The notes below the pieces were generated by a model. It worked only from the letters and a program-made list of their open reading frames with translations. It did no database searches and was not told where the DNA came from. A stretch of DNA of 64,000 bases, taken from Desulfovibrio sp. (GTDB lineage Bacteria; Desulfobacterota; Desulfovibrionia; Desulfovibrionales; Desulfovibrionaceae). Of the stretch, positions 21,898 through 54,475 are shown one piece after another (within the stretch, counting starts at the first letter, position 1; every line of letters starts with the position of its first letter). A program made the position numbers and the translations under genes. The stretch lies in NCBI GenBank assembly GCA_031269345.1, contig JAISZH010000031.1:370-64369 (forward strand), read 5' to 3'.

Positions 21898-22011
21898 TCT
21901 CTCTCCCGTAAACTCACTGCCGAAACAAATTGCGTCCGGCAATTTGTTTCGGCAGCCTTCGTAAATCCGTCCTATTGAATTTCTTACACTGAAAACCGGG
22001 GCTGAACCAGG

Positions 22012-23576: not shown

Positions 23577-23587
23577 GAGCGAAGCTG

Positions 23588-23637
23588 TTCAGATTTCCAT
23601 GGGGAAATCTGTATTTGGAATCCCAATGAGATATCCG
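23588..23637 (-). repeat. Repeat family D, short inverted copy D3
   Basis: The reverse complement (CGGATATCTCATTGGGATTCCAAATACAGATTTCCCCATGGAAATCTGAAC) matches the 5' part of D1 (28329-28382). Confidence 0.7.
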
Positions 23638-23639
23638 CC

Positions 23640-23992: not shown

Positions 23993-24028
23993 TTGTCCAC
24001 TTCCCTACCCCTGCCGTATATACGAGCC

Positions 24029-36458: not shown

Positions 36459-36603
36459 GCATTTTATCTTTGAGGTGACGCACCCGGCCCTCTCAGCCTA
36501 CGTCCGCTCCGGCATTTAACAGCGCAAATAAGTTGCGCTTACGCTTTCGCGGCGGGCGTCCGCTCTCGCGGCAGCCAGAGCAGTTTCAAAGTGAAATTGC
36601 TCT
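36459..36603 (+). repeat. Repeat family A, copy A1 (~145 bp)
   Basis: Aligns by eye with 40081-40226 and 43131-43266. Shared blocks are TTTGAG..CCCTCTC..CGC(T/C)TC(C)GGCGTTTAACAGCGCAAA..TTGCGCTTACGCC..GGCGTCCGCTCT.GCGG..CAATTTCAAAGTGAAA. It contains the stop codon of the PSP1-like gene. Confidence 0.88.
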
Positions 36604-39106: not shown

Positions 39107-40033
39107 TTACGCCCGGGTCCGGTCAACTATGTGCTGGAAGGTCTCAGCCGCGCCCTGCCCCAGGCTTATGTCTCCCAATGGATAGTCCAGGCCGAGAAAG
39201 GCGTATTTTTGTGTGCCCAGACGGTGATAGGGCAAGGCTTCAAAACCTGCGTTGGCGTGCCTCGCCAGAAAAGCGCCCAAGGCTTTGGCGTTTTCTTCGG
39301 AATCGTTGAAGCCGGGTATGACGGGAGTGCGCACCAGCACAGGCAGATTTGGAAACTTGCAGAGCAGTTTGTTCAGGTTTTCGAGGATGCTTTCGTTGCC
39401 GACCCCGGTGCCTTCCTTGTGCTTCGCGCTGTCCATGTGCTTGACATCGTAAAGGATGGAAGACAGAAGACCTGCCGCTTCGTTCAGGATTTCCCAAGGA
39501 ACGTGACCGCATGTCTCAAGGGCCGTCCGGATTCTTCTTTTCCCGGCCTCGCGCAGCAGCGCCAAGGCAAATGACGGTTGGGCCAGGGGTTCTCCGCCGG
39601 AAAGGGTCATGCCGCCTCCGGACCGACTGTAGAAAACGGAATCCTGCTCCACGGATTCAATGATTTCAGCAACATTTTTCGTCTGGCCGTAAGTGATTAT
39701 CCCCTGCGAAGGGCAGACTGAAGCGCAGACTTGGGTCTCGCAGAACTTGCAGACGTTTCTGTCTATGAAAACACTTTTATCGGGGCCGGGCGAAACGGCA
39801 CTTTTGGGGCAGATGTCGAGGCAGCGCCGACATTTGTCCAAACCGAGGCAGCGGCCCTTGTTATACGCGGGTTGCGGCTTTGCCGATCTGGATTCCGGAT
39901 TGCTGCACCACAGACAGGACAAAGGACAGCCTTTGAGAAAGACTATGGTGCGGATGCCCGGACCGTCATGCACCGAATATTTCTGAACATTGAAAATAAC
40001 GCCGTTTGTCTTTCTGTCTTCAAACGAAGCCAT
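39107..40033 (-). CDS. islB: Glycyl-radical enzyme activating protein (radical SAM), probable IslB/IseH-type
   Basis: CPLSCLWCSNPE radical SAM cluster motif, an auxiliary ferredoxin-like Cys-rich insert (CLGLDKCRRCLDICP, CKFCETQVCASVCP) and a GGEP motif. It lies downstream of the GRE gene. Confidence 0.9.
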   Translation of the reverse strand: MASFEDRKTNGVIFNVQKYSVHDGPGIRTIVFLKGCPLSCLWCSNPESRSAKPQPAYNKGRCLGLDKCRRCLDICPKSAVSPGPDKSVFIDRNVCKFCETQVCASVCPSQGIITYGQTKNVAEIIESVEQDSVFYSRSGGGMTLSGGEPLAQPSFALALLREAGKRRIRTALETCGHVPWEILNEAAGLLSSILYDVKHMDSAKHKEGTGVGNESILENLNKLLCKFPNLPVLVRTPVIPGFNDSEENAKALGAFLARHANAGFEALPYHRLGTQKYAFLGLDYPLGDISLGQGAAETFQHIVDRTRA

Positions 40034-40080
40034 GAATCTTCCTTGGAAAGTAGGGAGGAAAACGGCGCTCTCCCCCTATA

Positions 40081-40226
40081 GCATTTTACTTTTGAGACGA
40101 TGCACCCTGCCCTCTCCAGCTTACGCCCGCTTCGGCGTTTAACAGCGCAAACAAATTGCGCTTACGCCTTCGCGGCGGGCGTCCGCTCTCGCGGCCTCCA
40201 GGGCAATTTCAAAGTGAAATTGTCCT
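40081..40226 (+). repeat. Repeat family A, copy A2
   Basis: See A1. Its terminal hairpin is CCAGGGCAATTTC-aaagt-GAAATTGTCCTGG. Confidence 0.88.
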
Positions 40227-40227
40227 G

Positions 40228-40321
40228 GTGCCATGTATCGCTTAAAACTATGCATCAGCTTTGTTTCAAGCGATAAGATCGCACGGCAATAACCACGGTT
40301 TTTTGCCGTACTCGCGCCGCC
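40228..40321 (+). repeat. Repeat family B, copy B2
   Basis: Matches B1 (20511-20605) and directly abuts A2. Confidence 0.85.
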
Positions 40322-40424
40322 GCGCCCGGGCACAGGAAACCGCATGGACGCAGTTTCCTGCGCAAATTCGAATTACAGCGTGCCGGTCCCCACGGCGGGC
40401 AGATCCCGCCTGCGACTGTTCGGC

Positions 40425-40452
40425 GGCGGGGATTTGCAGGCAAATCCCCGCC
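40425..40452. repeat. 13-bp perfect hairpin GGCGGGGATTTGC-ag-GCAAATCCCCGCC just downstream of the GRE stop
   Basis: Read directly, 24 nt from the GRE stop codon. No U-tract follows on the minus strand. Confidence 0.8.
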
Positions 40453-40475
40453 GGGCGTTTCAAGTGCGAAATGTC

Positions 40476-42974
40476 CTACATGGTTGCATGTCCCGTGCGT
40501 GCGATGAGGTCATTTTGCAGATCCGGGGAAAGATCTACGAAATAGGCGCTGTAGCCGGCTATGCGCACGATCAGGTTGCGGTATCTTTGGGGGTCCTTCT
40601 GCGCTTTGAGCAGGGTTTCCTTGTTGATGACATTGAATTGGATATGCCAGAGTTTCAAATCGCAGTATGTGCGGATGAATGAGACCAGTTTCTCCGTGCC
40701 CGCATCGCCCTCAAGGCATTTTGGCGTGAATTTGATGTTCAGCATGCGGGCCGCCCGATCACGGTAGCCGTAATTCTTCGTCTGGTAGTTGGACAGCAGA
40801 ATTGCGGTAGGGCCGTTGATGTCCGCGCCGTGCGAAGCTGAAGAGCCGTCAGAAAGCGGAAACCAGGACGTGCGCCCGTTAGGGGTCGCGGAAACAACCT
40901 TGCCGAAAGGTACGTGGGAGGTGAAGGGCACATAGCGCAAGTCGTTGTGGATGCCCAGTTCCGCGCTGTATTTTTTGGAGAACTCAAGAGATACGTGGTC
41001 CAGCTCATGGGCCACGGCATCGGAATAGGGGTCGTTGTTCCCGTAGCAGGGGGCGGAGCGCAGGATCTGCTGCACGTCCTCGTAGCCCTCGAAATTGTGC
41101 TCCAGCGCGTCCATGACCTGATCCATGGTCAATTTTTTGCTTTCAAAAACGATTTTTTTGAGGGCTGCAAGGGAATCAGTCACCGTCCCGTAGCCCATGA
41201 ACTCAAAGTAGCCCAGGTTGATGCCCTCGGGGATATGCTCCTGATGCAGGTCTATGCAGTGTTTCATGCACAGGTCGTGCATGGCCGAACCCATGGGCTG
41301 GGCGAAATGCCGGGCGCGTGTCTTGTTGACTATGTACTGCTGGGTGAAGGCGGCGCGCAGGAAAAGCAAATGCTGTTGCAGATAGGCGTTCCAGAGTTCC
41401 TCCCAGGTTTTGAATTGCCTGGCGTCGCCCGTGCGCAGGCCGAGCTGCGTATCGCCGTATTTTTTCATCTTGCCGTCGTAAAGCGCCATTTCCAGGGCCG
41501 CGGCGAAATTGATGTAGGCTCCGCCGGAGGTGTAGGTATCACGGTTGGGCATGCGCGCCTCCGTGCAGCCGGAAACGGCGTAGTCCAGAGCCTCTTCAAA
41601 AGTCGCGCCTTTGGAAACATAGAGCGGCACTACTTCCTCGTCATTGCAGAGTTTTGGAAAACCTGAGCCGTATTTGATGGTTTCGGCGACATCCCAGAGG
41701 AAGCGGTCAGGGGAACGGGAATGGATGCGTGCCGCCAGATCCGGGTAATGCAGCGGAAACTCGCGTTTGGATTTCAGGAAGAGGAGGGTCAGGTCATTGG
41801 TGGCGTCGCGCCCGTCCGGGGTTTGCCCGCCGACGGTTACGGCCTCCCAGTGGGCGTACCCTTCGTTAAAAGCGCCGCCGGCCGGGGAAATATACATGTC
41901 TATGAATTCTGCCATTCCCACCCACATGCATTCCAGCAGCTCCAGTGCCTTTTCCTCGGTGATGCGGCCTTCCTCCAGGTCTTTGGCATAGAAGGGGTAA
42001 AAATATTGGTCCATGCGGCCGTTGGAGATGGTGGTTCCGGTTTTCTGCTCCATGCGGGAGAACATCTGTGTGAACCACTGCGATTGCACGGCCTCATAGA
42101 AGGTGCGCGCCGGGTTGCCGGGCACATATTCGGCGTTTTCCGCCATAAGCAGCAGCTCGGCTTTGCGCGCCGGGTCTTTTTCCTTTGCGGCCGCCTTGCG
42201 GGCCGCCTGCGCGTGACGGCGGGCCCAGAGCACAACGGCCTCGCATACAAGGACCACCGCCTCCAGGAAGGGACGTTTGTCCACCTGATCGACGGGACTT
42301 GCGGGATCAAGAGCCGCGAGCTTTTCTTCCGCTTCTTTCCTGATGCCGTTAAAGCCGCGTTTCAATATCTTTTCGTAGTCGTGCACCCATTGGATGGAAG
42401 AGCGGAAACTGGACGTTTCGTTGACGATGAAACGGGAGATAAGCCCTTCCGGGTCATCGTACGTCAGCTTGTGCACTTCCGGCGGCAGGGCCGCATTGAG
42501 CGCTTCATGGTAGGTCTTGCCCTTCCAGAAGGGGGCGATGCGCCTGATAACGGTTTTCGCGTCTTCCGTGGTGATGGTTGCGGGCGAAGTAGTGCGTGTC
42601 GGCATATCTTCTACGGCCCTGTCCAGAAAGTCCCCATCCAGTTCCGGATAGAGGATGCCGTAGCGTCCGATGCAACCCGCGCGGCCGAGCAGCAACTGGT
42701 CGTCCTGCACGTAAACCGTGATGTTTTTCGCTATGTGCATCATGGCCTTGGCCCAGCGCAGCACCAGGGGCTGGCCCACTGTCTTTTCCATGGACTGGGT
42801 GAAATAAAGAGCCCGCTCAACGTCAATACGGGGTTTTTGTCCCTCAAAGCGTTCCACAAGCCTGAAAACCCGGCTGTGTTCGACGCGGAAGCGGTCTTCA
42901 ACTCCCGCCATCTGGTCCGTAAGACGCTTTTCCTGTGGGGAAAGGCATTCGCATTCGGTAAATTGCAATCTCAT
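40476..42974 (-). CDS. islA: Glycyl radical enzyme of the PFL2/1,2-eliminase clade, probable isethionate sulfite-lyase (IslA/IseG-like)
   Basis: C-terminal glycyl radical motif RIAGYSAYF, a thiyl loop SGCTEA (Cys-x-Glu), and PFL2-type blocks ([48 protein letters not shown]). The ATG at 42974 lies 6 nt behind GGAGG, giving 832 aa. The Arg191/Gln195/Cys470/Glu472/Arg680/Gly807 pattern is discussed in the findings. Confidence 0.85.
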
Positions 42975-43130
42975 CTTCATCCTCCGATCATTTTCCCCAG
43001 CCGCGCCAAACGCGGACGGAAGGTTACAGATATTTTTATGCAATCCGCTGAGCAACTCCCATGCCAGTTTCATTTATCCCACATATTCCGCGCGGTTTTC
43101 CGCCATGAAACGGCTTTCGGGGCATGTCAA

Positions 43131-43266
43131 CTTTGAGATTACAGCCTGGCTTTCTCCGTTCTGCGCCCGCTCCGGCGTTCAACAGCACAAATAAATTGCG
43201 CTTGCGCCTTCCCGGCTGGCGTCCGCTCTAGCGGCCGCCGGAGCAATTTCAAAGTGAAAGTGCCAG
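43131..43266 (+). repeat. Repeat family A, copy A3 (more diverged)
   Basis: See A1. It lies between the TSUP gene stop and the GRE start. Confidence 0.8.
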
Positions 43267-43346
43267 GAGAAACAATTTTTGCATCGACAAACCGCGTATG
43301 TCTTTCGACTTTTCCCGTGTTGCATTTTTGCATCGCTTGACGGCCT

Positions 43347-44093
43347 CTACTCCAGGACGCCCCGCGCGGCAATGAGCAGGCCGATGACGAGGCAGAACCA
43401 GGTCACATATTTTTTCAGGCTGTCCAAAGGAAGGTTGTGCGCAACGCGCACCCCCAGCGCTACCCCGACCAGTTCGCAGACCGTCACCCACCAGACCAGG
43501 GGAAAGACGATGAAGCCGTTGCTGTAGTTGCTCAGCGAGCCCGCGGCCGAGACAAAGGATTGCAAGACCTGGGCGGTGCCTATGCAGGGCAGGACGGCGT
43601 ACCCGAAAAGCAGCATGACCGGGGTCGAGACAATGCCGCCGCCAGCCCCGGTCATGCCGCAGAGAAAGCCGGTGAACAGGCCGATACACATGAGCAGGAG
43701 AAAATTTCCCCGCGCGTCCAATCTGTCCGCAAAGCGCGCGCCTTTTGCCGGACGCAGGGAATAGAGGCTTGAGAGGATGACTATGCCTGCGAGCAACAGG
43801 GAAAGGGCCGGTGAGGAGAGGCGTGCGTTCACGGACGCCCCGGCATAGCTGCTTGCCAGACTTCCGACCAGTACCGGGACGGTCGTTTTCCAGTGGATGC
43901 TGCCATAGCGCTGGAAGATATAAGTGGCGATTATGCCGGTGAAAAAAAAGCTGAACAGGGCGGTGGCCATGGCCTGGTGCGTGGAAAGACCGCCAAAGAA
44001 CATGAGTGCGGGAATAAGCAGCACACCGCCGACTCCGCCGGCCCCGATGATGAAGCCTATGAACAGGGAGGACAGGGCCAGCGGCATGTACAT
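43347..44093 (-). CDS. TSUP-family membrane protein (TauE/SafE-type, putative sulfite/sulfonate anion exporter)
   Basis: 248-aa protein with ~8 TM helices, an internal two-fold repeat and Gly-rich motifs (GAGGVGGVLLIPAL, GMTGAGGGIVSTPVML). Confidence 0.8.
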   Translation of the reverse strand: MYMPLALSSLFIGFIIGAGGVGGVLLIPALMFFGGLSTHQAMATALFSFFFTGIIATYIFQRYGSIHWKTTVPVLVGSLASSYAGASVNARLSSPALSLLLAGIVILSSLYSLRPAKGARFADRLDARGNFLLLMCIGLFTGFLCGMTGAGGGIVSTPVMLLFGYAVLPCIGTAQVLQSFVSAAGSLSNYSNGFIVFPLVWWVTVCELVGVALGVRVAHNLPLDSLKKYVTWFCLVIGLLIAARGVLE

Positions 44094-44159
44094 GAGTTTT
44101 CCCGGCGTTTTTTCGGAGCGTTGTTTGCTGACGTTTCCCCGGGCGTTTGTCTTGTCCGC

Positions 44160-45071
44160 TCATTGGAACGAACGGACATAAGGCACAAAGGGCAGAGGCG
44201 TTCCGATTACGGAAGAGTGCGGCTTGGCCGCGCGTGTTGCGGATTTGTCCAATATGCGGGCGGCGTTTTCGTACATGACCTTGCGCCGCACCGTGTCCGT
44301 CAGGTTCATCTTGTTGTAGATATCAATGGCTTCGGCCTGTTCCACAAAGGGATGCGCGCTGGCGAAGACGACCTTGTCGCTGATGGCGGTATTGAGCGCC
44401 TGCACGTAAAGCTCGCCCATGGGAGCAAGCTCGTACTCGGAGAGGTCCATGTAGACATTGGCGTTGCGCATGCAGGCAAAAATGGCTTCGTTCACGAACG
44501 GATAGCCGCCGTGGCTCATGATGATGGTCAGTTCCGGAAAATCCCTGGCCACTATGTCCACATGGCGCGGATCAACGTAGTCAATGACGGCGCGCGGCAC
44601 CTGAGGCGGCGGGGCCATGGTGATGAACACCGGCACGCCCAGTTCCGCGCATTTGGTATACACCGGATAGTAGCGCGCCTCATGCGGCGGGATATGGGCA
44701 AGGTAGGGGTCGGTGGCGATGCCGCGCATGCCGAATTTTTCCACAACGCGGTTGATCTCGTATACGGCCTTCATACCCTTGTGCGGATCTATGCCCCAGA
44801 AGCCCACGAAAATATCCGGGCGGGCGCGTGCGAATTCCAGCACACTGTCGTTGTTTGACGGGAAACAATAGGTGGTTTCGCAGTCGCGTCCGGTGATCAC
44901 CGCAAGTTCCACACCGCGTTTTTTCAAGCCTTCCACCACCTCAGGCAGAGATTGGGGGATTCGCCTGTCGAAATTGATGGCTTCGCAGGTGGCTTTGAAC
45001 ATGGAACTATTCTTGATGCCGTTAATTATTTCCGGGGTGTGGGGCCGGAAACGGAAATCAATGATTTTCAT
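44160..45071 (-). CDS. Amidohydrolase-2 (PF04909-like TIM barrel) fold protein lacking the N-terminal HxH metal motif
   Basis: MKIIDFRFRP.. occupies the position where this family normally has IDxHxH. Later blocks are typical (VFITMAPP, IIMSHGGYP, YENAARIL). It overlaps the upstream ATPase gene by 14 nt. Confidence 0.7.
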   Translation of the reverse strand: MKIIDFRFRPHTPEIINGIKNSSMFKATCEAINFDRRIPQSLPEVVEGLKKRGVELAVITGRDCETTYCFPSNNDSVLEFARARPDIFVGFWGIDPHKGMKAVYEINRVVEKFGMRGIATDPYLAHIPPHEARYYPVYTKCAELGVPVFITMAPPPQVPRAVIDYVDPRHVDIVARDFPELTIIMSHGGYPFVNEAIFACMRNANVYMDLSEYELAPMGELYVQALNTAISDKVVFASAHPFVEQAEAIDIYNKMNLTDTVRRKVMYENAARILDKSATRAAKPHSSVIGTPLPFVPYVRSFQ

Positions 45072-46002
45072 ATGCGCTCCCGGTGCGGGTCACTCTCTGT
45101 CCCTCCCCATCATCTTTGCCGGCCTTGGGTCTTGCCTGTTCCTCGCCCATTTTGGAGTATGCCTCCAGAAAGTCAGCCGCGTTGACAGCTCCGGCGGCGA
45201 AAGATTTCATGGCTTCCTCGTGCAGGAGTTCCAATGCCTCGCGTTTGATGTCCAGGTATTCCGGCGAGCCCATAACGGAAAATTCGCGCGGCCTGGGCAG
45301 GTCTACGTCCATGATTTTTTTGACGCGGCACGGATGATTGGTCAGGATTACCAAGCGATCGGCCAGGAATATTCCTTCTTCCAGTTCCGAGGTAACAAAC
45401 AGGTTTGTACCGCGATGCTCTTCAAAGAGGCGCACATAGTATTCCTGCATAAGCGAACGGGTCATGGCGTCCAGTCCTCTGAAGGGCTCGTCCATAAGCA
45501 TGACCTTGGGATGATTGATCATAGCCCGTACCAATTCCGCTCTGCGCTGCATGCCTCCAGAGAGCTGGGAGGGATATTTGCCCGCGAAGTCTTCAAGTCC
45601 CACCATTTTCAGCAACTGCATGGTGGTATCGGCCAGTTCCCTTCCGGACAATTCCTTGCGCACCCTTGGACCGTAACTGACGTTTTCGAAAGTGGTCATC
45701 CAGGGGAAAAGGGCTGTTTCCTGAAACACCACCAGACGGTCCGGCCCCGGACCGGTGACGGGTTCGCCGTCCAAGGAAACGCGTCCGGAAGTCGGTTTTT
45801 CATAGCCCGCCAGCACGTTGATCAGCGTACTTTTGCCGCAGCCGGACGGACCCACCAGCACGGTAAGCCTGCCCTTTTCCAGCGTAAAGGAGCAATCTTT
45901 GAGGACTTCCTTGGTCAGAACGTCTGCGCCGTAAGTTTTACAGACATTTTCCATGCTCATTTCGCCGGCGCGCTGTCCGGGGGTGAGTGTCGTCTTCATC
46001 AT
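45058..46002 (-). CDS. ABC transporter ATP-binding protein, NitT/TauT (SsuB/TauB-like) family, copy 2
   Basis: Walker A GPSGCGKST, signature LSGGMQRR, Walker B VMLMDEPF. The start could be 46002 or 45960. Confidence 0.9.
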   Translation of the reverse strand: MMKTTLTPGQRAGEMSMENVCKTYGADVLTKEVLKDCSFTLEKGRLTVLVGPSGCGKSTLINVLAGYEKPTSGRVSLDGEPVTGPGPDRLVVFQETALFPWMTTFENVSYGPRVRKELSGRELADTTMQLLKMVGLEDFAGKYPSQLSGGMQRRAELVRAMINHPKVMLMDEPFRGLDAMTRSLMQEYYVRLFEEHRGTNLFVTSELEEGIFLADRLVILTNHPCRVKKIMDVDLPRPREFSVMGSPEYLDIKREALELLHEEAMKSFAAGAVNAADFLEAYSKMGEEQARPKAGKDDGEGQRVTRTGSAYENH

Positions 46003-46049
46003 GCGTTTATTCCGTAAAAGTACATTTTACCGATGTATGCTTCTGACGA

Positions 46050-46850
46050 TCAGCGGGTCTTCAGCCAGGGGGTGAAACGGCTGCCTACCAAACGGATCAG
46101 TGCCGATGAAAAATATCCGGCGATCCCGATGCTCATCATGCCAACTACTATAAGGGGAAATTCGCCTGCCACGTAACCGCGCCAAGTCAGATAGCCAAGG
46201 CCCGTCTTGCTGGCGACCATTTCGGCCGCCACCACCACGGCCCAGGTGATGCCCATGCCCACGGTCATGCCCACCACAACGCTGGGCAGGCTGGCGGGAA
46301 GCAGAACTCGCCAAAAAATGTCACTCCGGCTGGAACCGAGCGAGTGTGCCGCCCTGATGTAACGCACGTCAATACTGGTGATGCCTTCCACAATGTTCAG
46401 CACCACGGTAAAGAAAGCGCCCAGAAAGGTCACGAAGATCATGCTCATTTCCGCCGAAGGCCAGAAAATGACGGATACAGGAACCCAGGCCAGCGGCGGC
46501 ACCGGCCGCATGATCTCGAAAATCGGGAAAAGAACTTCCCTTGCCCGGTCGTTGGCGCCCAGAAAAAGTCCCAGCGGCACTCCAATGATCTGGGCGATGA
46601 TGAAGCCGGTGAAAATCCGGATCATGCTGTCCTTCCAAGAGAGCCAATAATAGGTATTATGGAGTTGGACGGCCAGGGTGGACACGACTTCCGAGGGAGC
46701 GGGCACATTGCCGATGATCGGCGCCTTCAGATACGTACACAATTCCCAGAGCAAGGTGAAGACCGTCAAAGAAAATATGCCGCGCCAGAAGGTCCGGGAA
46801 CGCGTCCTATTTTTTATTCCGGCAAGCGCCCGGGATATCCTGTCGTTCAC
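46050..46850 (-). CDS. ABC transporter permease, NitT/TauT (SsuC/TauC-like) family, copy 2
   Basis: BPD-type permease with the EAA-like loop IRAAHSLGSSRSDIFWRVLLP. The GTG at 46850 sits behind a GGAGAT RBS. The longer ORF would overlap the upstream ATPase gene. Confidence 0.85.
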   Translation of the reverse strand: MNDRISRALAGIKNRTRSRTFWRGIFSLTVFTLLWELCTYLKAPIIGNVPAPSEVVSTLAVQLHNTYYWLSWKDSMIRIFTGFIIAQIIGVPLGLFLGANDRAREVLFPIFEIMRPVPPLAWVPVSVIFWPSAEMSMIFVTFLGAFFTVVLNIVEGITSIDVRYIRAAHSLGSSRSDIFWRVLLPASLPSVVVGMTVGMGITWAVVVAAEMVASKTGLGYLTWRGYVAGEFPLIVVGMMSIGIAGYFSSALIRLVGSRFTPWLKTR

Positions 46851-46860
46851 TTTATATCTC

Positions 46861-47715
46861 CTACATTTCCCGCTCGCCGGCTTTGAAGGCTTTGACCGCT
46901 TCCTCGTGTACCGCCGCAATGCATTCGGTTCTAAGCCTCTGGTAGGCCGTAGACGCCAGGACGCGAAAATCACGCGGGCGGGGGATGTCAACGGAGAGCA
47001 CCTTTTTTATGGTGGCGGGTCTGGTGGTCATTATATAGACCTTGCTTCCGAGGAAAATTGCCTCGTCGAGATCGTGCGTGATGAAGAACACCGTTGTTTT
47101 GTTCCTGTCGTAAACGTCAAGCAAAAACTGATGCACCACGGTCTTTGTAAGCGCGTCCATGGCCCTGAAGGGCTCGTCGAGCAAAAGCACGCGCGGGTCG
47201 TTCATCATGGCCCTGGCGATTTCCACCCGGCGGCGCATGCCCGAGGAAATCTCGCTCGGATAGTTGTGGGCTATGCCTTTAAGACCCATCTGGCCCATCA
47301 TGTGCAAGGCCTTTTCTTCCGCATCTTTTTTGGATGCGGCCCCCTGCATCACCGGGCCGAAGGTTATGTTCTCAAGCACCGTGAACCAGGGAAAGAGCGC
47401 TCCGTTTTGAAAGACCACGATACGATCCGAGCCGGGCTTGGGCACCTGGGAACTGTTGCAGAGCAGTTCACCATCAAGATGAATTTCGCCCGCGCTGATG
47501 CCGTGGAATCCGGCAATGGCGTTAAGAAGCGTGGTTTTGCCGCAGCCTGAGGGGCCGACTATAACACAGAATTCGCCCGCCTCAATTTCCATGGAACAGT
47601 CGTCCACGGCAAGCACCCGCGCCCCGTCAGGGTCGTATATCTTGCTGACGGCGCGTATGCTTATGGCTCCACGGGGCGTTTTCCCCCCGCCGTTTTCAAC
47701 AGACACAGCGCTCAT
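46861..47715 (-). CDS. ABC transporter ATP-binding protein, NitT/TauT family, copy 1
   Basis: Walker A GPSGCGKTT, signature ISSGMRRR, Walker B VLLLDEPF. Confidence 0.9.
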   Translation of the reverse strand: MSAVSVENGGGKTPRGAISIRAVSKIYDPDGARVLAVDDCSMEIEAGEFCVIVGPSGCGKTTLLNAIAGFHGISAGEIHLDGELLCNSSQVPKPGSDRIVVFQNGALFPWFTVLENITFGPVMQGAASKKDAEEKALHMMGQMGLKGIAHNYPSEISSGMRRRVEIARAMMNDPRVLLLDEPFRAMDALTKTVVHQFLLDVYDRNKTTVFFITHDLDEAIFLGSKVYIMTTRPATIKKVLSVDIPRPRDFRVLASTAYQRLRTECIAAVHEEAVKAFKAGEREM

Positions 47716-48614
47716 TATGCGACCTCCCTAACCTTCCACTGCATGAGTTTGTCCCCGACCAGCCGGATAATGAGGCTGCTCAGAGAACCTATCACGCCCA
47801 GGGTGATCATGGCGATGATGATGACCGGATATTGCACCAGTGTGTAAGAGTTCCAGATAAGGTAGCCGAGGCCGAATTCCCCGGCCAGCATTTCGCCGGC
47901 CACGAGGGAAAACCATGCGTAGCCCATGCTTATTTGCAGACCTGTGAAGATGAAGGGAAGCGAGCCGGGGACGATGACCTTATAAAAAATTTGTTTCTCC
48001 GAGGCGCCAAGGGACGCAGCCGCCCTAAAATACGCCTCGTCTATGGATTCGACGCCCAGAAGCGTGTTTAAGACAGTAGCGAAGAAGGAGCCGAGGAAGG
48101 TCAGGAAAATGATGGAGGCCTCGCGCCCCGGCCACATGAGGATGGACAGCGGCACCCACGCGAGCATGGGGATGGGGCGCAGAACTTCAAGAAGGGGGAA
48201 AGTGTAATCCTTGAAGGTCGCTTTCCAGCCCATGAACAGCCCGATCGGAACTCCCAGAGCCGTAGCCAGCATAAAGGCCTGGAAAACACGCCAGGTACTT
48301 ATGCCGATGTGCTGGTAATATTCCATGGTGTAGAAGGAAATGCCGTAGAGCGGGTCGGCAGAGAGCCATTCGGTGAAAGTGGCTTTTGGACCGGGGAGTT
48401 TGTTGAAGAGCGGCAGGTTGAAAACCTCGGTTGTGACGTACCAGACCGCTACGAAACCGCATAGTCCGAGCAGGTTCAGGTAGGGCGAGGGGCTTCCAAG
48501 CCAGTGCTTCATCCTGGTCCAGGTCTGGGCGACTGAACTTAACTGTGTGCCGGGATTGTCCGGAGTCTCGAAGGGCACGCTGTTCTCCTTGCCGGATGAG
48601 TAGACGTCAGGCAT
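47715..48614 (-). CDS. ABC transporter permease, NitT/TauT family, copy 1
   Basis: BPD-type permease with the EAA-like loop FRAAASLGASEKQIFYKVIVP. Its stop overlaps the next gene's start by 1 nt. Confidence 0.88.
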   Translation of the reverse strand: MPDVYSSGKENSVPFETPDNPGTQLSSVAQTWTRMKHWLGSPSPYLNLLGLCGFVAVWYVTTEVFNLPLFNKLPGPKATFTEWLSADPLYGISFYTMEYYQHIGISTWRVFQAFMLATALGVPIGLFMGWKATFKDYTFPLLEVLRPIPMLAWVPLSILMWPGREASIIFLTFLGSFFATVLNTLLGVESIDEAYFRAAASLGASEKQIFYKVIVPGSLPFIFTGLQISMGYAWFSLVAGEMLAGEFGLGYLIWNSYTLVQYPVIIIAMITLGVIGSLSSLIIRLVGDKLMQWKVREVA

Positions 48615-48665
48615 GGGCGAGCCAGGATCATCCGCGCGGACGATCCTGGCTTTTATCTGGAACCG

Positions 48666-49784
48666 TTAATCGCTGAAGGGGCACTGCGCCGGGAGCATTC
48701 CCTTGATATAGCCGAGCGTGGCCTTTTCGTCCACCGGCGTGTAGCCGGCTTCCTTGAATATCGCGCGGGCCAGGCTGTCGTCCACCACCCAGTCTTTCAG
48801 GGCGGGAACGGCGATGACTTTTTCCTGGTGCAGGAAGGGAGCGACGGCTTTGATGTTGTCCAGTTCGCGTTTGTTGAAATAATATGATTTCCACTCACGC
48901 ACGGGATCAGCGCTGGTGGACGGCACCTTGCCGTAAATGGAGTACCAGAGCACGCGCTTGGAAATGCCGGAAGCGTGCTTTGCCACCATCTCCACCACCT
49001 GCTTCTGGTTGGCCGGATCGAGCAGGAAGCGCTGGGCTTCCAGTTCCGAACGGAGGTAGGCTTTGGCGGCATCCGGGTTGTCTTTGATGAAGTCGTTGCG
49101 CATGACCAGGATGCCGAGGTCCGGGTTGTCGCAGGCGCTTCCATCCGCCACGATGCGTACGCTGCCGTCGCCAACATCTGTTGCTATGCGCGAGACTGTG
49201 GGCTCCCAGGCGGAAGCCGCGTCAAGTTTGCCGCTGCGGAAGTTGGTGGCAATGACCTCAATGGATTGATTCAGATATTCTTTGGGTTTTACCTGATAGC
49301 GCTCGAAAAAACGGCGCAGGTACTGGTCGGAGGCGCTGCCTTTGGGTGCGGCTATGACCTTGTTGTTAAGCCATTTCGCGACATCCTCGTTGCTTTTGAA
49401 TTCGGGCGCGTCTTTACGCACCAGGACCAAAGAACAACGCGTGCCTTCGGACATGCCGAGCGAGGCCACCATTTTGATCTCCGCCTGTTGATCCTTGGAG
49501 CAGAGTATCGTCGCGGGCATCACGCTCATATAACCAGCGACCGCTTTGCCGGCGAGCATGTTGTTGGCCACGATAGTGCCTTGTAAGGCGGGCGCGAATT
49601 CAAATTCCACATCCTTGGGCGCGTATTTCTTCCAGAGACCGAGTTCAGCGTTGACGATCACCTGATAGGAAATCGTGTCGTAGGGCTGGTAGCCGATGGT
49701 GAAGGTGCGGGCGGCGTTGGCTCCTGTCGCCGCGCTCATGACGAAAATGAAAAGCGCGCAAAAAATGCTGCAAAAACCTTTCAT
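48666..49784 (-). CDS. Periplasmic substrate-binding protein, NMT1/SsuA/TauA-like
   Basis: The ATG at 49784 lies 8 nt behind GGAGG, followed by the signal peptide MKGFCSIFCALFIFVMSAATGANA and a TauA/SsuA-type fold (FTIGYQPYD.., AAPKGSASD.., AASAWEP). Confidence 0.85.
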   Translation of the reverse strand: MKGFCSIFCALFIFVMSAATGANAARTFTIGYQPYDTISYQVIVNAELGLWKKYAPKDVEFEFAPALQGTIVANNMLAGKAVAGYMSVMPATILCSKDQQAEIKMVASLGMSEGTRCSLVLVRKDAPEFKSNEDVAKWLNNKVIAAPKGSASDQYLRRFFERYQVKPKEYLNQSIEVIATNFRSGKLDAASAWEPTVSRIATDVGDGSVRIVADGSACDNPDLGILVMRNDFIKDNPDAAKAYLRSELEAQRFLLDPANQKQVVEMVAKHASGISKRVLWYSIYGKVPSTSADPVREWKSYYFNKRELDNIKAVAPFLHQEKVIAVPALKDWVVDDSLARAIFKEAGYTPVDEKATLGYIKGMLPAQCPFSD

Positions 49785-50687: not shown

Positions 50688-51167
50688 TCACCGCCGCTGT
50701 TCAACAGGCACACCAGTGGAGCACTTCCTGCACCTGCCCTGTATTTCAATACAGTTGTCGCGCAGGGACATACCCAGTTCGTCGAATCTGGCCCGCATGG
50801 ATTCGTATAGAACGGGGTCTTCCAGTTCTTCTACCCGTCGGCATTCCGAACAGACGAACATGAGCAGCGCATGTTCGTCATGACTGCCGGTACACGGCAC
50901 GAAGGCATTCAAAGAATTGATGCGGTGCGCCATTCCGTATCGCAGCAAAAAATCCAGTGTCCGGTAAATGGTCGCCGGGGTGAGCCGTTCTCCTTTGTCT
51001 CGCATCCGTTCAATAAGATCATAGGCCTTGACGGGACCGTCCGCCGACAAAAGGAGTTCAAGAATCCCCCGACGCAACCTGGTCAGTCGCAGGCCGTTCC
51101 TCGCGCAGATTTCTTCGGCTTCACGCAGGCTACGCACGGCGCTTTCGGAACATTCCTTCACTACCAT
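50688..51167 (-). CDS. zur: Fur-family metalloregulator, probable Zur
   Basis: Winged-helix N-domain (RLTRLRRGILELL..PVKAYDL..ATIYRTLDFL) and two CxxC pairs (CSECRRVEE.., GRCRKC). It overlaps the last gene of the zinc uptake operon by 7 nt. Confidence 0.75.
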   Translation of the reverse strand: MVVKECSESAVRSLREAEEICARNGLRLTRLRRGILELLLSADGPVKAYDLIERMRDKGERLTPATIYRTLDFLLRYGMAHRINSLNAFVPCTGSHDEHALLMFVCSECRRVEELEDPVLYESMRARFDELGMSLRDNCIEIQGRCRKCSTGVPVEQRR

Positions 51168-51718
51168 TGATATGGCTCCGCCTTATCTAGCGCCATGCTG
51201 TACCCGGAGGCTCCCATGCTCCCGGAGTCATGTCGTTCAACGGAAATAGTCCCATAAACCCATGCCGCGTCCATAGACCGCAACCCCTTGAGAGGCTTTT
51301 GCGTCTTTACATGGATGATCTGATTCGCGGGCGGCGGCGGCAAATGGATACAGGCGCCGAAGTACGGGACAAGCAGAAATTCTTTCAGTTCCGCATCGTT
51401 CTCCCAATCCAGCGGGGCGATGAAGCCGGATATTTTTATGCGCTGCCCGCTTATCTTTTCATTCGCGGGAGCTTTCGCCCACTCCTCCATAAAGGCTTCA
51501 TACGCCTTTTCCACACGCGGGTTGTAATCGTCCTCGGGAAGGCTGTCCAAATCAAGCCCCTCAAAGGCTTTTTCCGGATTCCACGATTCCGGCACGAGTT
51601 CATCCCATTGGACTTCTTTGTACGAGTCAGCCGTGGCGCTTTCCCCGACCAGGGACGTATTATGCAAAAAAACGCAGCACATGGCAAAGCACAGCGCCGG
51701 CTTGACATATGCTTTCAT
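51161..51718 (-). CDS. zrgD: DUF3299-type periplasmic protein (ZrgD-like)
   Basis: Signal peptide and the hallmark FLLVPYFGACIHLPPPPANQIIHV motif. The ATG at 51718 sits behind GGAGG. An alternative coupled start is at 51769. Confidence 0.75.
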   Translation of the reverse strand: MKAYVKPALCFAMCCVFLHNTSLVGESATADSYKEVQWDELVPESWNPEKAFEGLDLDSLPEDDYNPRVEKAYEAFMEEWAKAPANEKISGQRIKISGFIAPLDWENDAELKEFLLVPYFGACIHLPPPPANQIIHVKTQKPLKGLRSMDAAWVYGTISVERHDSGSMGASGYSMALDKAEPYQW

Positions 51719-51765
51719 GACGCCTCCGACAGAAAAATAACGAAACAGGGATGGAATATTTTTTT

Positions 51766-53037
51766 TCATATGGATACGGTGAGCCCGTCCGACAAACTCA
51801 TGCGATAGGCACGCAATGCCGGGAAAAGGCTGGCGGCAAGTCCGGCAAGGCAGATGCATCCCAAAAGAGCCCACTCGCCAGCCGCCGGAGGCGAAAGGTA
51901 GACGAATATCCCGTAGTTGTCGGCCAAAATCGGGCTGATGGCCGCCACCAGCACAAACAAGGCCGAAAGGCCGCAGATGACGCCCGAAATGACAATCAGG
52001 CCCCCTTCGCAGGCCGTCAGTATCAGAATGTCCAGCGGACGCGCGCCGGCGGATCGCAAAATCGCCAGCTCCCGCCTCCGCTCGCCCAAGCCCGCGAGTA
52101 TGGCTGCGGCCAGTCCGGCCAGACCCGTCGCCGTGACCAGGGCGGAAATCAGCAGCAGCGCCTGTTCTCCGGTATTGACCATGCTCCACATCTGGTCCAT
52201 GACAACGCCGGGCATGACGCCCATAAGCGGTTCGGACTTCCATTCATTGACCTCGCGCTGGAAAGCGAAAACATGGCTGCGTTTTTTCAGGCCGACCAGC
52301 ATTGCCGTGATGGTTCTCGGCTCAAGGTTGAACCTCGTCACCTGTTCGGCAGTGATGCGCAGACCAGGGATTGGGGCGCCGCCCCGCCAGTCGACGTGGA
52401 TCGCTTCCATGGCGGCAAGGCCGATATACAGCGAACGGTCGACCGGGGTGCCAGTTGACGCGAGGATGCCGGAAACAGTGAAGGGTTTGTCGGTATGTTC
52501 TACAAGACGCGCCCCGCTGCCCCCATGGCTCAACGCTATTTTCTGCCTCGGGGAATAGCCGAGTTTCCTGGCGGTTTCAGCGCCTATAACCACGTCAAAA
52601 AGCGTCTCGATCCATTTACCTTCCGCCAGTTCCAGCCGCTTGTCACTCCGGAAGCGGTAGTGTTCAAAAAAAGCGCCGGTTGTCGCCACAACGGGATAAC
52701 CTTTGTGGGAATCCCCCAAGGAAATCGGAATGGTCCAGGCGACCTCGTCTTTTTCGGCGATTTTCCGGGCGCTGTCCCACCCCATATTGTTTGTCGCGCC
52801 GCCAAGATGAAAAACGGCGTACAACATAAGCTGCATACTGCCGCCCCGGGCGCCGACGATCAGATCGGTCCCGGAGACGGACTGCACAAAACTCTCCCTG
52901 ATTTGCGTCCGGAGCTTTTCGATGCCCAGCAGCAGCGTAGTCGAAAGAGCGATGGAAAACACGATAATGCCCAGTGTGCCCCGGCGGTTCCAGGCGCTTT
53001 TTCCGGCAAGGCGCAACAGGTAGGAAAACCGCCTCAT
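51766..53037 (-). CDS. zrgC: FtsX-family ABC transporter permease (ZrgC-like)
   Basis: MacB/FtsX topology: an N-terminal TM helix, a large periplasmic domain and a C-terminal FtsX 3-TM bundle. Confidence 0.82.
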   Translation of the reverse strand: MRRFSYLLRLAGKSAWNRRGTLGIIVFSIALSTTLLLGIEKLRTQIRESFVQSVSGTDLIVGARGGSMQLMLYAVFHLGGATNNMGWDSARKIAEKDEVAWTIPISLGDSHKGYPVVATTGAFFEHYRFRSDKRLELAEGKWIETLFDVVIGAETARKLGYSPRQKIALSHGGSGARLVEHTDKPFTVSGILASTGTPVDRSLYIGLAAMEAIHVDWRGGAPIPGLRITAEQVTRFNLEPRTITAMLVGLKKRSHVFAFQREVNEWKSEPLMGVMPGVVMDQMWSMVNTGEQALLLISALVTATGLAGLAAAILAGLGERRRELAILRSAGARPLDILILTACEGGLIVISGVICGLSALFVLVAAISPILADNYGIFVYLSPPAAGEWALLGCICLAGLAASLFPALRAYRMSLSDGLTVSI

Positions 53038-53915
53038 GATGCCTCCTCCCCGCCTGCCCGGTTCAATTCCGGCAAATGCGCCACAACCGAAAAGTCTTCC
53101 GCAAGGCTCTGATCATGGCTGACAAAAAGCAGGGCGGCTTGCGTCGAACGGCATTCTCCAAGCAGAAGTCGCAGAAAGACTTTGCGCCTGTCGGCATCAA
53201 GAGAGGAAGTAGGCTCGTCCGCGATGAGTATGGAGGGTCTTCCCACCAGGGCGCGGGCGGCGGCGACCCGTTGTTGCTGCCCGACAGAAAGCCGGTTGAC
53301 CGGCCTGCCCCATAGCGATGGGGACAGGTCCAGACGTTCCAGCAACATTCTCGCTTCAGCAGCCGCGCTTCCAGACAGAGCGCGGGCACGTTCAAGGCGT
53401 AAGGGAGAAAAGCGGCATGGCAGAAGAACATTCTCCAGAATGGACAGGTAGGGGATCAAATTGAATTGCTGGAAAATAAAACCGATGCAATCTCCTCTGA
53501 ACATGTCGCGCTTCGCGCTGCCGAGCTCGTTCAGGCACACGCCGTTGACAAAAACCGTACCGGAGGCGGGCGAAAAAATTCCCGCGACAAGCCCGAGCAA
53601 GGTGCTTTTCCCGCTGCCGCTCGGGCCGGAAATGAAAACGTGCTCGCCGGGAGATACGGAAAAGATGGGAATGTCCAGCGTGGGCCGCTGTTGCCCCGGC
53701 CACTTGAAGACCACGTTTTTCAAAAAAACGGCGAAAGCGGCTGGATTTTCTCCCGTCTCTCCGCCGGAGCATCCCACGCTTGAAATGCCCTGCGGGGATT
53801 TGCCTGCGGAACCTTGCCGCCGAATGGCCGCAGGCGAGTTTTGCTCGCCGCGAGGACTATTTGAAGCGTTAATTGCCTGAGGAGCCTTGAAACCGCACAA
53901 CCCCACGGCTACCAC
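53034..53915 (-). CDS. zrgB: ABC transporter ATP-binding protein (ZrgB-like); start codon uncertain
   Basis: Walker A GPSGSGKST, signature LSVGQQQR, Walker B ILIADEPTS. Candidate GTG starts are at 53915, 53906 and 53777. The longer ORF to 54056 overlaps the upstream gene. Confidence 0.8.
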   Translation of the reverse strand: MVAVGLCGFKAPQAINASNSPRGEQNSPAAIRRQGSAGKSPQGISSVGCSGGETGENPAAFAVFLKNVVFKWPGQQRPTLDIPIFSVSPGEHVFISGPSGSGKSTLLGLVAGIFSPASGTVFVNGVCLNELGSAKRDMFRGDCIGFIFQQFNLIPYLSILENVLLPCRFSPLRLERARALSGSAAAEARMLLERLDLSPSLWGRPVNRLSVGQQQRVAAARALVGRPSILIADEPTSSLDADRRKVFLRLLLGECRSTQAALLFVSHDQSLAEDFSVVAHLPELNRAGGEEAS

Positions 53916-54475
53916 CGGATTACGCTGGCCTCGGGGCTGAGTTCCGCCGCGTTCTGCCCTTTGGGGGTGACCATCTGAACTTCCATCCGGCGCAGATTCG
54001 GGAAAACGCTGAACATGTTCACAGTGACGCTGTTCAATTTTTCCTGGTTGAGGCATATGAACGATATCTCCGCGTCAAGGTCTCCGTGGTCTTCATGGGA
54101 TTTCCCGCCATGATCGTGCGCCTCGCGTTGCCGTGAACCTTCCGGCGCGAGCAGGGACTGCCCGAGGACTTCCGAATCCAGGGACACCTTCTCCGGCCGG
54201 CATCGGGCTTCAGCGGGGAAAACGAACAGGGCTCCGGCGTTGCGCATTAGCGCGGCCATATTGCGGACTTCCTGCCTTTGCGCGTCAGTTTCCGGTTTGT
54301 GCTCGAAAGAAAGGAAATTGTCGAGCGCACCTGTTATCTCTATTTCCACTTTTTTTTCTTCCACAACCATATTCATATGGGCAAGGCCGTGCTCATGGGC
54401 TTCATGGGCTGAAGCAAAACTGTCAAGGCCCCAAAAGATTCCAATTACCGCGCAAAGCACCAGAATTTTTTTCAT
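53909..54475 (-). CDS. zrgA: DUF2796-type His-rich periplasmic metal-binding protein (ZrgA-like)
   Basis: Signal peptide, AHEAHEHGLAHMN.. and HDHGGKSHEDHGD His clusters, and a FEHKP motif. First gene of the operon. Confidence 0.75.
   Translation of the reverse strand: MKKILVLCAVIGIFWGLDSFASAHEAHEHGLAHMNMVVEEKKVEIEITGALDNFLSFEHKPETDAQRQEVRNMAALMRNAGALFVFPAEARCRPEKVSLDSEVLGQSLLAPEGSRQREAHDHGGKSHEDHGDLDAEISFICLNQEKLNSVTVNMFSVFPNLRRMEVQMVTPKGQNAAELSPEASVIRW

Follow-up and report, generated by a model that had tools for sequence, protein, structure and literature searches.

What substrate is served by a glycyl radical enzyme (GRE) resembling IslA when it lies among genes for an ABC importer and an amidohydrolase-fold protein, and what might the latter contribute? 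We have studied this for a nine-gene locus of a Desulfovibrio sp., contained in a window of 64 kb (the whole stretch of DNA analyzed). A sequence-only reading took the accessory genes to hint at a different organosulfonate, or a conjugated one, processed before C-S cleavage. That reading as a whole is borne out in part, its inference on the substrate is not. We consider that the locus probably encodes a module for respiring isethionate (2-hydroxyethanesulfonate) in a sulfite/sulfate reducer of the Desulfovibrio type, operating by the mechanism proposed below.

Table 1. Features of the locus, in order of transcription, with the basis of each assignment
Feature	Position	Strand	Basis
NitT/TauT-family periplasmic substrate-binding protein	48666..49784	-	Pfam NMT1_2 and NMT1
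ABC permease 1	47715..48614	-	Pfam BPD_transp_1
ABC ATPase 1	46861..47715	-	Pfam ABC_tran
ABC permease 2	46050..46853	-	Pfam BPD_transp_1
ABC ATPase 2	45058..46002	-	Pfam ABC_tran
Amidohydro_2-fold TIM-barrel protein, RxR for HxH	44160..45071	-	PF04909, 122 bits
TauE/SafE (TSUP) permease	43347..44093	-	Pfam TauE, 125 bits
110-nt structured intergenic repeat, copy upstream of GRE	43153..43262	-	
Sigma-54-like -24/-12 element TGGCATGGGAGTTGC	43052..43066	-	weak evidence
GRE, assigned as IslA/IseG orthologue	40476..42974	-	bit scores to 7KQ3/5YMR and pocket motifs
110-nt repeat, second copy, GRE-activase gap	40113..40222	-	
IslB, GRE-activating radical SAM enzyme	39107..40033	-	Pfam Radical_SAM and Fer4_12; TIGR02494

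All nine genes lie on the same strand, as originally read, and were assigned by Pfam (Table 1). The two overlaps reported between them are exact: 1 nt at 47715, where the stop of permease 1 and the start of ATPase 1 share TAATG, and 14 nt at 45058-45071, between ATPase 2 and the start of the amidohydrolase-fold gene. For the GRE the most likely start is 42974 (GGAGG, 6 nt, ATG), not the ORF limit of 43073; this gives 832 amino acids, the same as in L001, a 96% relative. Permease 2 most likely starts at the GTG at 46853, giving 267 amino acids as in its L001 equivalent, with an ORF that extends to 46991. The packing had suggested a single transcription unit. This holds for the tightly packed stretch from the binding protein to TauE, which is likely to form one unit, but not for the GRE, which stands between gaps of ~370 and 442 nt, both containing a copy of a 110-nt repeat. 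A single nine-gene transcript is therefore not implied, and transcription is probably split, such that the GRE and activase would each stand behind a separate repeat-bearing gap. L001 lacks ~350 nt of the GRE-activase gap.

The GRE matched the Pfam families PFL-like (586 bits) and Gly_radical (100 bits). Direct comparison gave 1583 bits to IslA of Bilophila wadsworthia (7KQ3) and 1487 bits to IseG of D. vulgaris (5YMR), against 1198 bits to the HpsG structure 6LON, i.e. 290-385 bits lower. In alignment the contexts of R189/Q193, C468/E470 and R678/V680/F682, residues whose roles are taken from PMC13450708, are those of IslA/IseG. B. wadsworthia HpsGH belongs to the same clade of C-S-cleaving GRE eliminases and has the same sulfonate-binding Arg/Gln/Arg triad, but the HpsG pocket differs at four positions (F188Y, S191A, I192L and F682I), at all of which the window GRE has the IslA residue. 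RYVPFTSH and the other pocket motif are likewise in the IslA/IseG state, and all the sulfonate-pocket residues checked agree. The GRE, which had been called IslA-like, is thus by sequence an orthologue of the isethionate sulfite-lyase IslA/IseG. Its partner IslB scores 334 bits as a glycyl-radical activase (TIGR02494, cut-off 174), and its translation contains the cluster motif CPLSCLWC.

Both proteins are orthologous to those of the Desulfovibrio cluster islR-dctP-dctMQ-islA-islB (D. alaskensis G20 and D. desulfuricans DSM642; IseGH in D. vulgaris Hildenborough), the GRE being 76-77% identical to the Oleidesulfovibrio and Nitratidesulfovibrio proteins. Tpa, SarD, a TRAP transporter, shell genes and a regulator, earlier noted as missing from the locus and its immediate flanks, are missing from the full 64 kb as well: no gene for these or for a sigma-54 activator was found when 39 ORFs were scanned against Pfam (the nine genes of the locus plus 30 of the larger ORFs from the rest of the window) and tblastn was run with DctP, DctQM and regulator queries. 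The islR-dctP-dctMQ-islA-islB cluster likewise lacks tpa, sarD and shell genes, as Desulfovibrio isethionate clusters are described to do (PMC6386719), and their absence is normal for such loci. Unlike that cluster, the window has an ABC importer and TauE in place of TRAP, with all genes collinear, a GRE between two repeat-bearing gaps, and no IslR gene in 64 kb. An IslR-type sigma-54 protein encoded beyond the window probably serves as activator. One sigma-54-like match, TGGCATGGGAGTTGC (next base T), lies ~80-86 nt before the start of the GRE; the window contains no more such matches than chance would give, and L001 does not share the element.

The ABC importer, comprising the binding protein, two permeases (35% identical to each other) and two ATPases (41% identical), is a recurrent stand-in for the importer of TRAP type that takes up isethionate. 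In several relatives it fills the operon slot held by TRAP DctPQM in most loci, lying divergent beside GRE and activase genes in seven further loci and in Fundidesulfovibrio soli. Homologues of the binding protein with 60-100% identity are widespread across Desulfovibrionaceae, and adjoin IslA-like genes wherever the context is visible. The binding protein scores 69 bits on NCBIfam SsuA_fam, under the cut-off, and only 32 bits against E. coli TauA (6SSY), while the top NCBIfam matches of permease 1 (SaoP, TauC and NtrB) each fall under their cut-offs. Such remote likeness to TauA/SsuA does not establish the ligand by sequence; we predict isethionate or a close C2/C3 sulfonate.

We read the amidohydrolase-fold protein as a conserved core partner of IslA, and not an extra specific to this locus. 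An IslA-like gene lies within 10 kb in 26 of the 27 genomes that carry the gene with 8 kb or more of sequence to either side; in the remaining one no GRE is found within that distance. Reciprocally, the gene is present on 16 of 17 IslA-bearing metagenome contigs, the exception being a locus with an ABC importer and TauE. Across the loci compared, members of the clade are 63-96% identical to the window protein, and their neighbors include TRAP, ABC or MFS transporters (the last in D. piger and D. cuneatus), or TauE as the sole transporter detected nearby; adjacency to TauE recurs in many loci. In Desulfobotulus the adjoining TRAP binding protein has a 468-bit match to 8T9T, which binds isethionate. 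A solved homologue of this IseP type encloses isethionate, and does not bind taurine, hypotaurine, sulfoacetaldehyde or ethylsulfonate (PMC11668362). The gene also occurs in the orthologous Nitratidesulfovibrio and Oleidesulfovibrio loci; in these lineages it is divergent next to dctP, and in Nitratidesulfovibrio it adjoins the IseG orthologue (1654 bits to 5YMR). Most commonly it directly follows the importer genes, usually as the last of their operon. This position would also suit a role on the substrate side.

The B. wadsworthia IslAB microcompartment operon (HMPREF0179_00636-00649) opens with an orthologue, HMPREF0179_00649, that is 70% identical to the window protein and is tabulated as a 'hypothetical protein, predicted amidohydrolase function' (PMC8667426, Table 1). 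The IslA of this cluster and the window GRE share 81% identity across the portion of the gene that L034 contains. In contrast to that cluster, the window lacks shell proteins, AdhE, Pta and PduS, and has importer genes instead; B. wadsworthia makes isethionate intracellularly, and the operon as tabulated has no importer gene (PMC8667426).

Does the protein have the active site of an amidohydrolase? The classical HxH/Asp metal site is lost, with RxR/Ala in its place; IIDFRFRP is read at the N-terminus and FASAHPF in strand 8. Among the relatives Asp is kept at position 239 in 9/9 HxH sequences, whereas RxR sequences never have it, carrying Ala, Gly, Ser or another non-acidic residue at that site. 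The two arginines replacing HxH are invariant. The best solved relative is the uncharacterized BB4693 of Bordetella bronchiseptica (3IRS, 3K4W; E = 5e-29 by sequence, TM-score 0.75-0.80, ~27% identity over the structural alignment), which also has IIDFRxRP in place of HxH, but Tyr in the position of His240 of the IslA-linked clade. The next folds are LigJ hydratase and the gamma-resorcylate, LigW and ACMSD decarboxylases; the top 50 structural neighbors listed include no amide hydrolase. No NCBIfam family was matched. In view of the lost metal site and invariant arginines, we take the protein to be a metal-independent enzyme or a small-anion-binding protein. The sequence-only reading found its role unexplained by known pathways, and we agree: the literature and databases searched gave no assigned function, and the literature no pathway that explains it, no experiment on it or on this ABC system, and no functional characterization of the nine-gene arrangement.

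We propose the following mechanism. The NitT/TauT-family ABC importer would bring in the sulfonate, replacing the TRAP importer; a system of the same broad sulfonate kind, SsuCAB, is required for growth of Rhodobacter capsulatus on isethionate (PMC11423573), although, in a likeness drawn from description only, that system has three genes to the five here, serves sulfur assimilation and is partnered by a nitrogenase-like reductase, not a GRE. IslA activated by IslB, with activity as expected from orthology, would split isethionate into sulfite and acetaldehyde, the sulfite passing to dissimilatory sulfite reductase and the acetaldehyde to enzymes encoded elsewhere. TauE would act as a sulfite or sulfonate permease within the module. 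The amidohydrolase-fold protein would function at or after C-S cleavage, and not as a deconjugating hydrolase. From known aldehyde-bisulfite chemistry, it might handle the stable acetaldehyde-bisulfite adduct 1-hydroxyethanesulfonate.

The protein could instead be a non-hydrolase on the substrate side, producing isethionate from another sulfonate, imported or internal, by hydration, decarboxylation or isomerization. The hydratase and non-oxidative decarboxylase folds closest to it among characterized proteins would fit, as would its typical place downstream of importer genes, and a 41% relative sits in an ABC-transporter operon beside a PF03601 membrane protein, a family that we take to include the putative sulfate exporter TauZ. 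Yet purified IslA acts directly on isethionate, and we know of no candidate precursor. Model strains, moreover, grow on isethionate alone by means of the cluster genes already published, and no such step is described for them (PMC6386719). We regard this role as rather unlikely.

It is unlikely that a conjugated sulfonate (N-acyltaurine or an isethionate ester) enters by the ABC importer and is freed in the cytoplasm by the amidohydrolase-fold protein before C-S cleavage, even though the gene overlaps the last ATPase gene and closes the importer operon in most loci, and the importer matches NaaABB'CC' (R. pomeroyi, C. necator) in having one binding protein with two permeases and two ATPases, a system that, compared by description only, is found beside the so-called amidohydrolase NaaS (PMC4334477). 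The window protein lacks the metal site that classical amidohydrolases require, amide hydrolases are missing from its listed structural neighbors, its clade tracks IslA and not taurine genes, and the window has neither tpa nor sarD. The sizes also count against the comparison, NaaS being ~61 kDa and the window protein 34 kDa. Furthermore, the same clade accompanies the IseP-type TRAP (PMC11668362) and MFS/TauE transporters, and occurs in the Bilophila operon, for which no importer gene is tabulated (PMC8667426). Since the gene belongs to canonical IslA loci (TRAP-IseP, D. piger, Bilophila), a different or conjugated substrate is unlikely. The earlier argument from the accessory genes does not stand, and isethionate is the best substrate call.

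That the GRE is HpsG (a DHPS sulfolyase or dehydratase) and the locus degrades 2,3-dihydroxypropanesulfonate is very improbable: the GRE scores 1527 bits on NF048011 ('HpsG', cut-off 1000) and NF048010 ('HpsH') reaches 432.9 bits (cut-off 430), but NF048011 gives 1581 and 1578 bits on the Nitratidesulfovibrio and Oleidesulfovibrio IseG orthologues and so cannot tell IslA from HpsG, direct comparison and the four pocket positions favor IslA/IseG, and the B. wadsworthia hpsGH locus employs the TRAP system HpsKLM in a five-gene unit, hpsGHKLM, that by its published description lacks the amidohydrolase-fold gene (PMC13335735).

With the locus read as an isethionate module, the core question raised is the role of a partner that is conserved beside IslA, including in the gut pathobiont Bilophila.

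The nine minus-strand open reading frames running from 49784 to 39107 are present as the sequence-only reading described them, with the expected Pfam domains: an NMT1-type binding protein, two BPD_transp_1 permeases, two ABC_tran ATPases, an Amidohydro_2 protein, TauE, a glycyl radical enzyme (GRE) with PFL-like and Gly_radical domains, and a radical-SAM activase. Both gene overlaps are exact in the sequence, one of 1 nt (TAATG, 47715) and the other of 14 nt (45058-45071). The GRE most likely starts at 42974, where GGAGG is followed after 6 nt by ATG, giving a product of 832 aa, the length found in its closest relative; the start of the second permease is most likely at 46853. In TauE the PF01925 domain extends over the whole protein (125 bits, residues 5-239).

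The GRE was compared with solved structures, giving scores of 1583 bits for B. wadsworthia IslA (7KQ3), 1487 bits for D. vulgaris IseG (5YMR) and 1198 bits for HpsG (6LON). CutC and other characterised GREs reached at most 559 bits, leaving IslA and IseG as the closest characterised enzymes. The Gly_radical domain scores 100 bits in Pfam. RIAGYSAYF aligns to G805 of 7KQ3 and GCTEAR to C468 and E470, and thus the RxxGY motif and the catalytic Cys-x-Glu loop are both present. Roles in sulfonate binding and catalysis have been assigned to R189, Q193, C468, E470, R678 and V680 (PMC13450708). The sulfonate-pocket motifs SSFRSSIQW and RYVPFTSH (R189, Q193, R678, V680) are identical in the window GRE, IslA and IseG, and so is the motif around C468 and E470. 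The HpsG counterparts are SSYRSALQW and RYVPITSH, and at all four positions of difference (F188Y, S191A, I192L and F682I) the window GRE has the IslA residue. The best PDB scores and the identity of the pocket motifs thus bear out the earlier description of the enzyme as IslA-like. Its assignment as an orthologue of IslA/IseG is justified by these comparisons, and its predicted reaction is the conversion of isethionate into sulfite and acetaldehyde.

The NCBIfam equivalog model NF048011 ('HpsG') also matches the window GRE, at 1527 bits with a cut-off of 1000, a label under which the locus would be one for DHPS. NF048011 and NF048010 were tested on three GREs, that of the window (40476-42980) and those of two IseG-orthologue loci (L082:3785-6259 and L083:3515-5980). 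As a control, NF048011 gave 1581 bits for the Nitratidesulfovibrio IseG orthologue, which scores 1654 bits to 5YMR, and 1578 bits for that of Oleidesulfovibrio. Since the model scores around 1580 bits on IseG orthologues, the 'HpsG' match is not diagnostic; no IslA-specific NCBIfam model was among the matches of the three GREs tested. An HpsG/HpsH identity taken from the equivalog was dropped following the PDB comparison, the analysis of pocket residues and this control. An annotation trap is exposed here: IslA and IseG proteins exceed the cut-off of the 'HpsG' model by a wide margin, and automated annotation that relies on it is likely to label isethionate sulfite-lyases wrongly, as sulfopropanediol enzymes. 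The activase, which adjoins the GRE, contains CPLSCLWC (the CxxxCxxC cluster motif) in its translation and scores 334 bits with TIGR02494 (cut-off 174). The cluster motif, a ferredoxin-like insert and adjacency to the GRE together place it among the GRE-activating radical SAM enzymes.

Pfam scans of 39 ORFs of the window, combined with tblastn for DctP, DctQM and the regulator, gave no taurine:pyruvate aminotransferase (Tpa), sulfoacetaldehyde reductase (SarD), TRAP system, shell protein or sigma-54 activator, in agreement with the earlier statement that such partners are absent from the locus and its flanks. The tblastn searches with DctP and DctQM gave no match in the 64-kb window, and thus there is no canonical TRAP system (IsePQM); similarly the sigma-54 PAS activator IslR had no match in the 64 kb, and none adjoins the locus. 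Published Desulfovibrio isethionate clusters comprise islR, dctP, dctMQ, islA and islB only, while Tpa, SarD and the microcompartment are features of Bilophila (PMC6386719; PMC8667426). As the published Desulfovibrio clusters lack these last three, their absence here is the normal state. The unusual points of the window locus are that it has no TRAP genes and no IslR.

In place of TRAP genes there is an importer of the NitT/TauT family, with an NMT1/SsuA-type binding protein, BPD_transp_1 permeases and ABC_tran ATPases. The similarity of the binding protein to TauA is remote (32 bits), and all NCBIfam equivalog scores for the importer genes (TauABC, SsuABC, NrtBCD, Sao) fall under their cut-offs. 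Binding-protein homologues of 60-100% identity are numerous in Desulfovibrionaceae. Wherever the context is visible, the five ABC genes take the DctP-DctQM slot beside GRE, activase and regulator, as in the related loci L009, L013, L021, L024, L164, L167 and L168 and in the isolate Fundidesulfovibrio soli, where microcompartment genes come after the ABC/GRE set. By its gene order the ABC set is a predicted non-orthologous replacement of the TRAP importer, and because the importer is swapped within the same slot, isethionate is the most economical predicted ligand. Growth of R. capsulatus on isethionate requires an Ssu-type ABC system (PMC11423573); no experimental characterisation of the present five-gene system was found in the literature searched. 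Predictions of sulfonate use from metagenomes are affected by this, as ABC importers commonly stand in for TRAP.

The same nine genes are found in the 96% relative L001, a Desulfovibrio MAG, with around 90-92% nucleotide identity across the block. In L001 an IslR-type gene directly follows the activase and LarA lies upstream, whereas the window has the nitroreductase gene and the zinc-uptake cluster in these places. Nucleotide similarity between the two stops at the borders of the nine-gene block (39107-49784), which suggests that either the block has moved or the flanks have been rearranged. The flanks are housekeeping, with nadBAC, mgtE, metG, a PSP1-domain gene and the nitroreductase gene on one side, and a Fur-family (probably Zur) zinc-uptake cluster, asd, yidC and rho on the other. 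Elsewhere in the window (22000-26000) the cumulative GC skew peaks at around 22-24 kb, beside a dnaA-like gene (23993-25582), and genes converge at this peak, plus-strand on the left and minus-strand on the right; an origin of replication beside dnaA would give the reverse pattern.

One transcription unit had been suggested from the tight packing of the transporter and amidohydrolase genes. Such packing holds only from the binding protein to TauE, a block that probably forms one unit; the GRE is set off by gaps of around 370 nt to TauE and 442 nt to the activase, each containing one copy of a 110-nt structured repeat, so that a single nine-gene transcript is not implied. The two copies bracketing the GRE gene are 3040 nt apart. 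A three-way alignment of the repeat has a mean column identity of around 85%; it begins TTTCACTTTGAAATTGC, and GC-rich hairpins follow. The repeat was not found in any of the 88 related loci compared, the 96% relative included, and Rfam gave no match for it, nor anywhere in the locus. A sigma-54-like element lies upstream of the GRE, and in Bilophila loci TGGCACGGC[AC]CTTGCT is found around 110 nt upstream of islA. Sigma-54-like matches are no more frequent in the window than chance would give, the site upstream of the GRE is not kept in L001, and no conserved sigma-54 promoter is consistently present across loci upstream of the GRE or importer operon.

Features in and around the nine-gene locus
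Feature	Position	Strand	Components, location or basis
Zinc-uptake-type cluster, directly upstream of locus	50688-54475	minus	Fur-family regulator, DUF3299, MacB/FtsX-type ABC pair, ZrgA
Structured repeat of ~110 nt, 3 copies	40113-40222, 43153-43262, ~36490-36600	all minus	intergenic
Sigma-54-like -24/-12 element TGGCATGGGAGTTGC (next base T)	43052-43066	minus	~80-86 nt upstream of GRE start
Amidohydrolase-fold gene	44160-45071	minus	

Relatives of the amidohydrolase-fold gene were found in 267 genomes in a scan of one genome per species. In 26 of the 27 loci with full flanks (at least 8 kb either side), a gene for an IslA-like protein, i.e., more than 70% identical to the window GRE, lies within 10 kb. 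Over the 54 loci that yielded both genes, the median distance to the GRE is 3.6 kb. The reciprocal test, starting from a GRE search, found the amidohydrolase-fold gene in 16/17 IslA metagenome contigs with full flanks. There are two exceptions. In D. cuneatus the gene has an MFS transporter gene as its neighbour and a sigma-54 activator gene upstream, with no GRE nearby. In the metagenome contig L091 (Ga0082212_10001619) the GRE (83% identical) is accompanied by the ABC importer and then directly TauE, with no amidohydrolase-fold gene within 10 kb; this is a natural 'deletion' variant, useful for comparison. The partner transporter varies, being TRAP in most loci, ABC, MFS (D. piger and D. cuneatus) or TauE alone. 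The position of the gene also varies: at the end of the importer operon, divergent from dctP (Nitratidesulfovibrio and Oleidesulfovibrio), between GRE and activase (L039, L040 and L042) or downstream of the activase (Mailhella). The B. wadsworthia copy (HMPREF0179_00649) heads the IslAB microcompartment operon; on its function, the main texts and supplements examined of PMC8667426 and PMC6386719 hold nothing beyond a table entry, and the literature searched gave no function for the protein. The amidohydrolase-fold protein is a near-universal partner of IslA. As the accessory set is common among relatives, the locus is less exotic than earlier proposed; it is a transporter-swapped version of a known locus type.

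The protein has around 300 residues and is highly conserved, with 63-96% identity to that of the window over two Desulfobacterota orders. Pairs of its sequences diverge by 26% on average, close to the 19% of IslA. Pairwise distances of the two proteins correlate (r = 0.73, Mantel p = 0.001) in the way that linked genes should, which does not discriminate between functions. The IslA-linked clade appears to form essentially one group at 50% clustering, the next full-length relatives being at most 46% identical; relatives of 38-46% are mostly on contigs too short to show gene context. A 41% relative occurs as a tandem pair (L086:8001-9771). Before the pair come a LysR regulator gene, two SBP_bac_5 binding proteins and two permeases of the Opp/Dpp type, and after it a PF03601 (YeiH-type) membrane protein.

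The fold is a TIM barrel, with PF04909 at 122 bits. Using a structure model of moderate quality (pLDDT 75), Foldseek gave BB4693 (3IRS) as the best solved relative, followed by LigJ hydratase, the gamma-resorcylate, LigW and ACMSD decarboxylases, and LigY; no amide hydrolase was among the top 50 structural matches listed. The metal ligands are missing, R7 and R9 replacing the HxH of strand 1 and A239 the Asp of strand 8. These positions co-vary among 97 more distant relatives, with Asp in 9/9 HxH sequences, and Ala, Gly, Ser or another non-acidic residue, never Asp, in the RxR sequences. D5, N74, D95, Y135, H187 and N205 are invariant family-wide; W92, E212, E214, H240 and E244 are so in the IslA-linked clade only. 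The protein is thus not a canonical metallo-hydrolase, and two arginines at the would-be metal position suggest an anionic ligand. It is cytoplasmic and has no leader. At the C-terminus (window 44160-44240) the longer forms of many Desulfovibrionaceae, including Bilophila, have a tail of around 25 residues with predicted disorder, in which the motif P-[LMV]-P-[FY]-x-P-[FY] is conserved; the forms of 276-282 aa in the alignment, including Desulfobotulus, have no tail, and its presence is not linked to a microcompartment.

What might such a protein do? It is conceivable, although on balance unlikely, that the RxR protein is a previously unrecognised, metal-independent enzyme needed for isethionate/taurine respiration at or after the IslA step. 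Sulfite and acetaldehyde, the products of IslA, combine into a stable adduct, 1-hydroxyethanesulfonate, by established aldehyde-bisulfite chemistry. One example of such an enzyme would be a lyase returning 1-hydroxyethanesulfonate to sulfite and acetaldehyde; faster dissociation of the adduct would feed sulfite reductase and aldehyde oxidation. This adduct-lyase role is one chemically motivated possibility. It is also possible that the protein acts on the substrate side in a non-hydrolytic manner.

The earlier interpretation, of which the IslA-like GRE and the absent partners stand, had the locus possibly processing a different or conjugated organosulfonate before C-S cleavage. Read as hydrolysis of a conjugate by this protein, it fits in part, given the operon position and a transporter make-up that resembles NaaABB'CC' (PMC4334477). 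However, the same protein is found with an isethionate-specific TRAP system (in Desulfobotulus the TRAP binding protein adjoining the gene matches 8T9T, which binds isethionate, at 468 bits), and in lineages whose characterised members use isethionate and not taurine. Moreover, in the Bilophila operon isethionate is made intracellularly and no importer gene is listed, and the HxH/Asp metal site is missing. These misfits point to a probable role at or after cleavage. Identity with the metal-dependent bile salt hydrolase of Bilophila was dropped, as that family is defined by Amidohydro_3, PF07969 (PMC13081988), and the Bilophila enzymes are secreted (PMC13081902), while the window protein is PF04909 and its barrel begins at once (MKIIDFRFRP) with no N-terminal extension.

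In the human gut, IslA-dependent respiration of isethionate and taurine is one of the main ways in which hydrogen sulfide is formed, and to our knowledge published accounts treat the IslA pathway as enzymatically complete. The analysis points to a real gap, a conserved protein that accompanies islA almost without exception and yet stands outside the published pathway, and an odd accessory set becomes a specific question that is genetically testable where tools exist (D. alaskensis G20 and B. wadsworthia). If the protein does act at or after the IslA step, the amidohydrolase-fold enzyme would fill a vacant place in the pathway by which Bilophila and Desulfovibrio form H2S.
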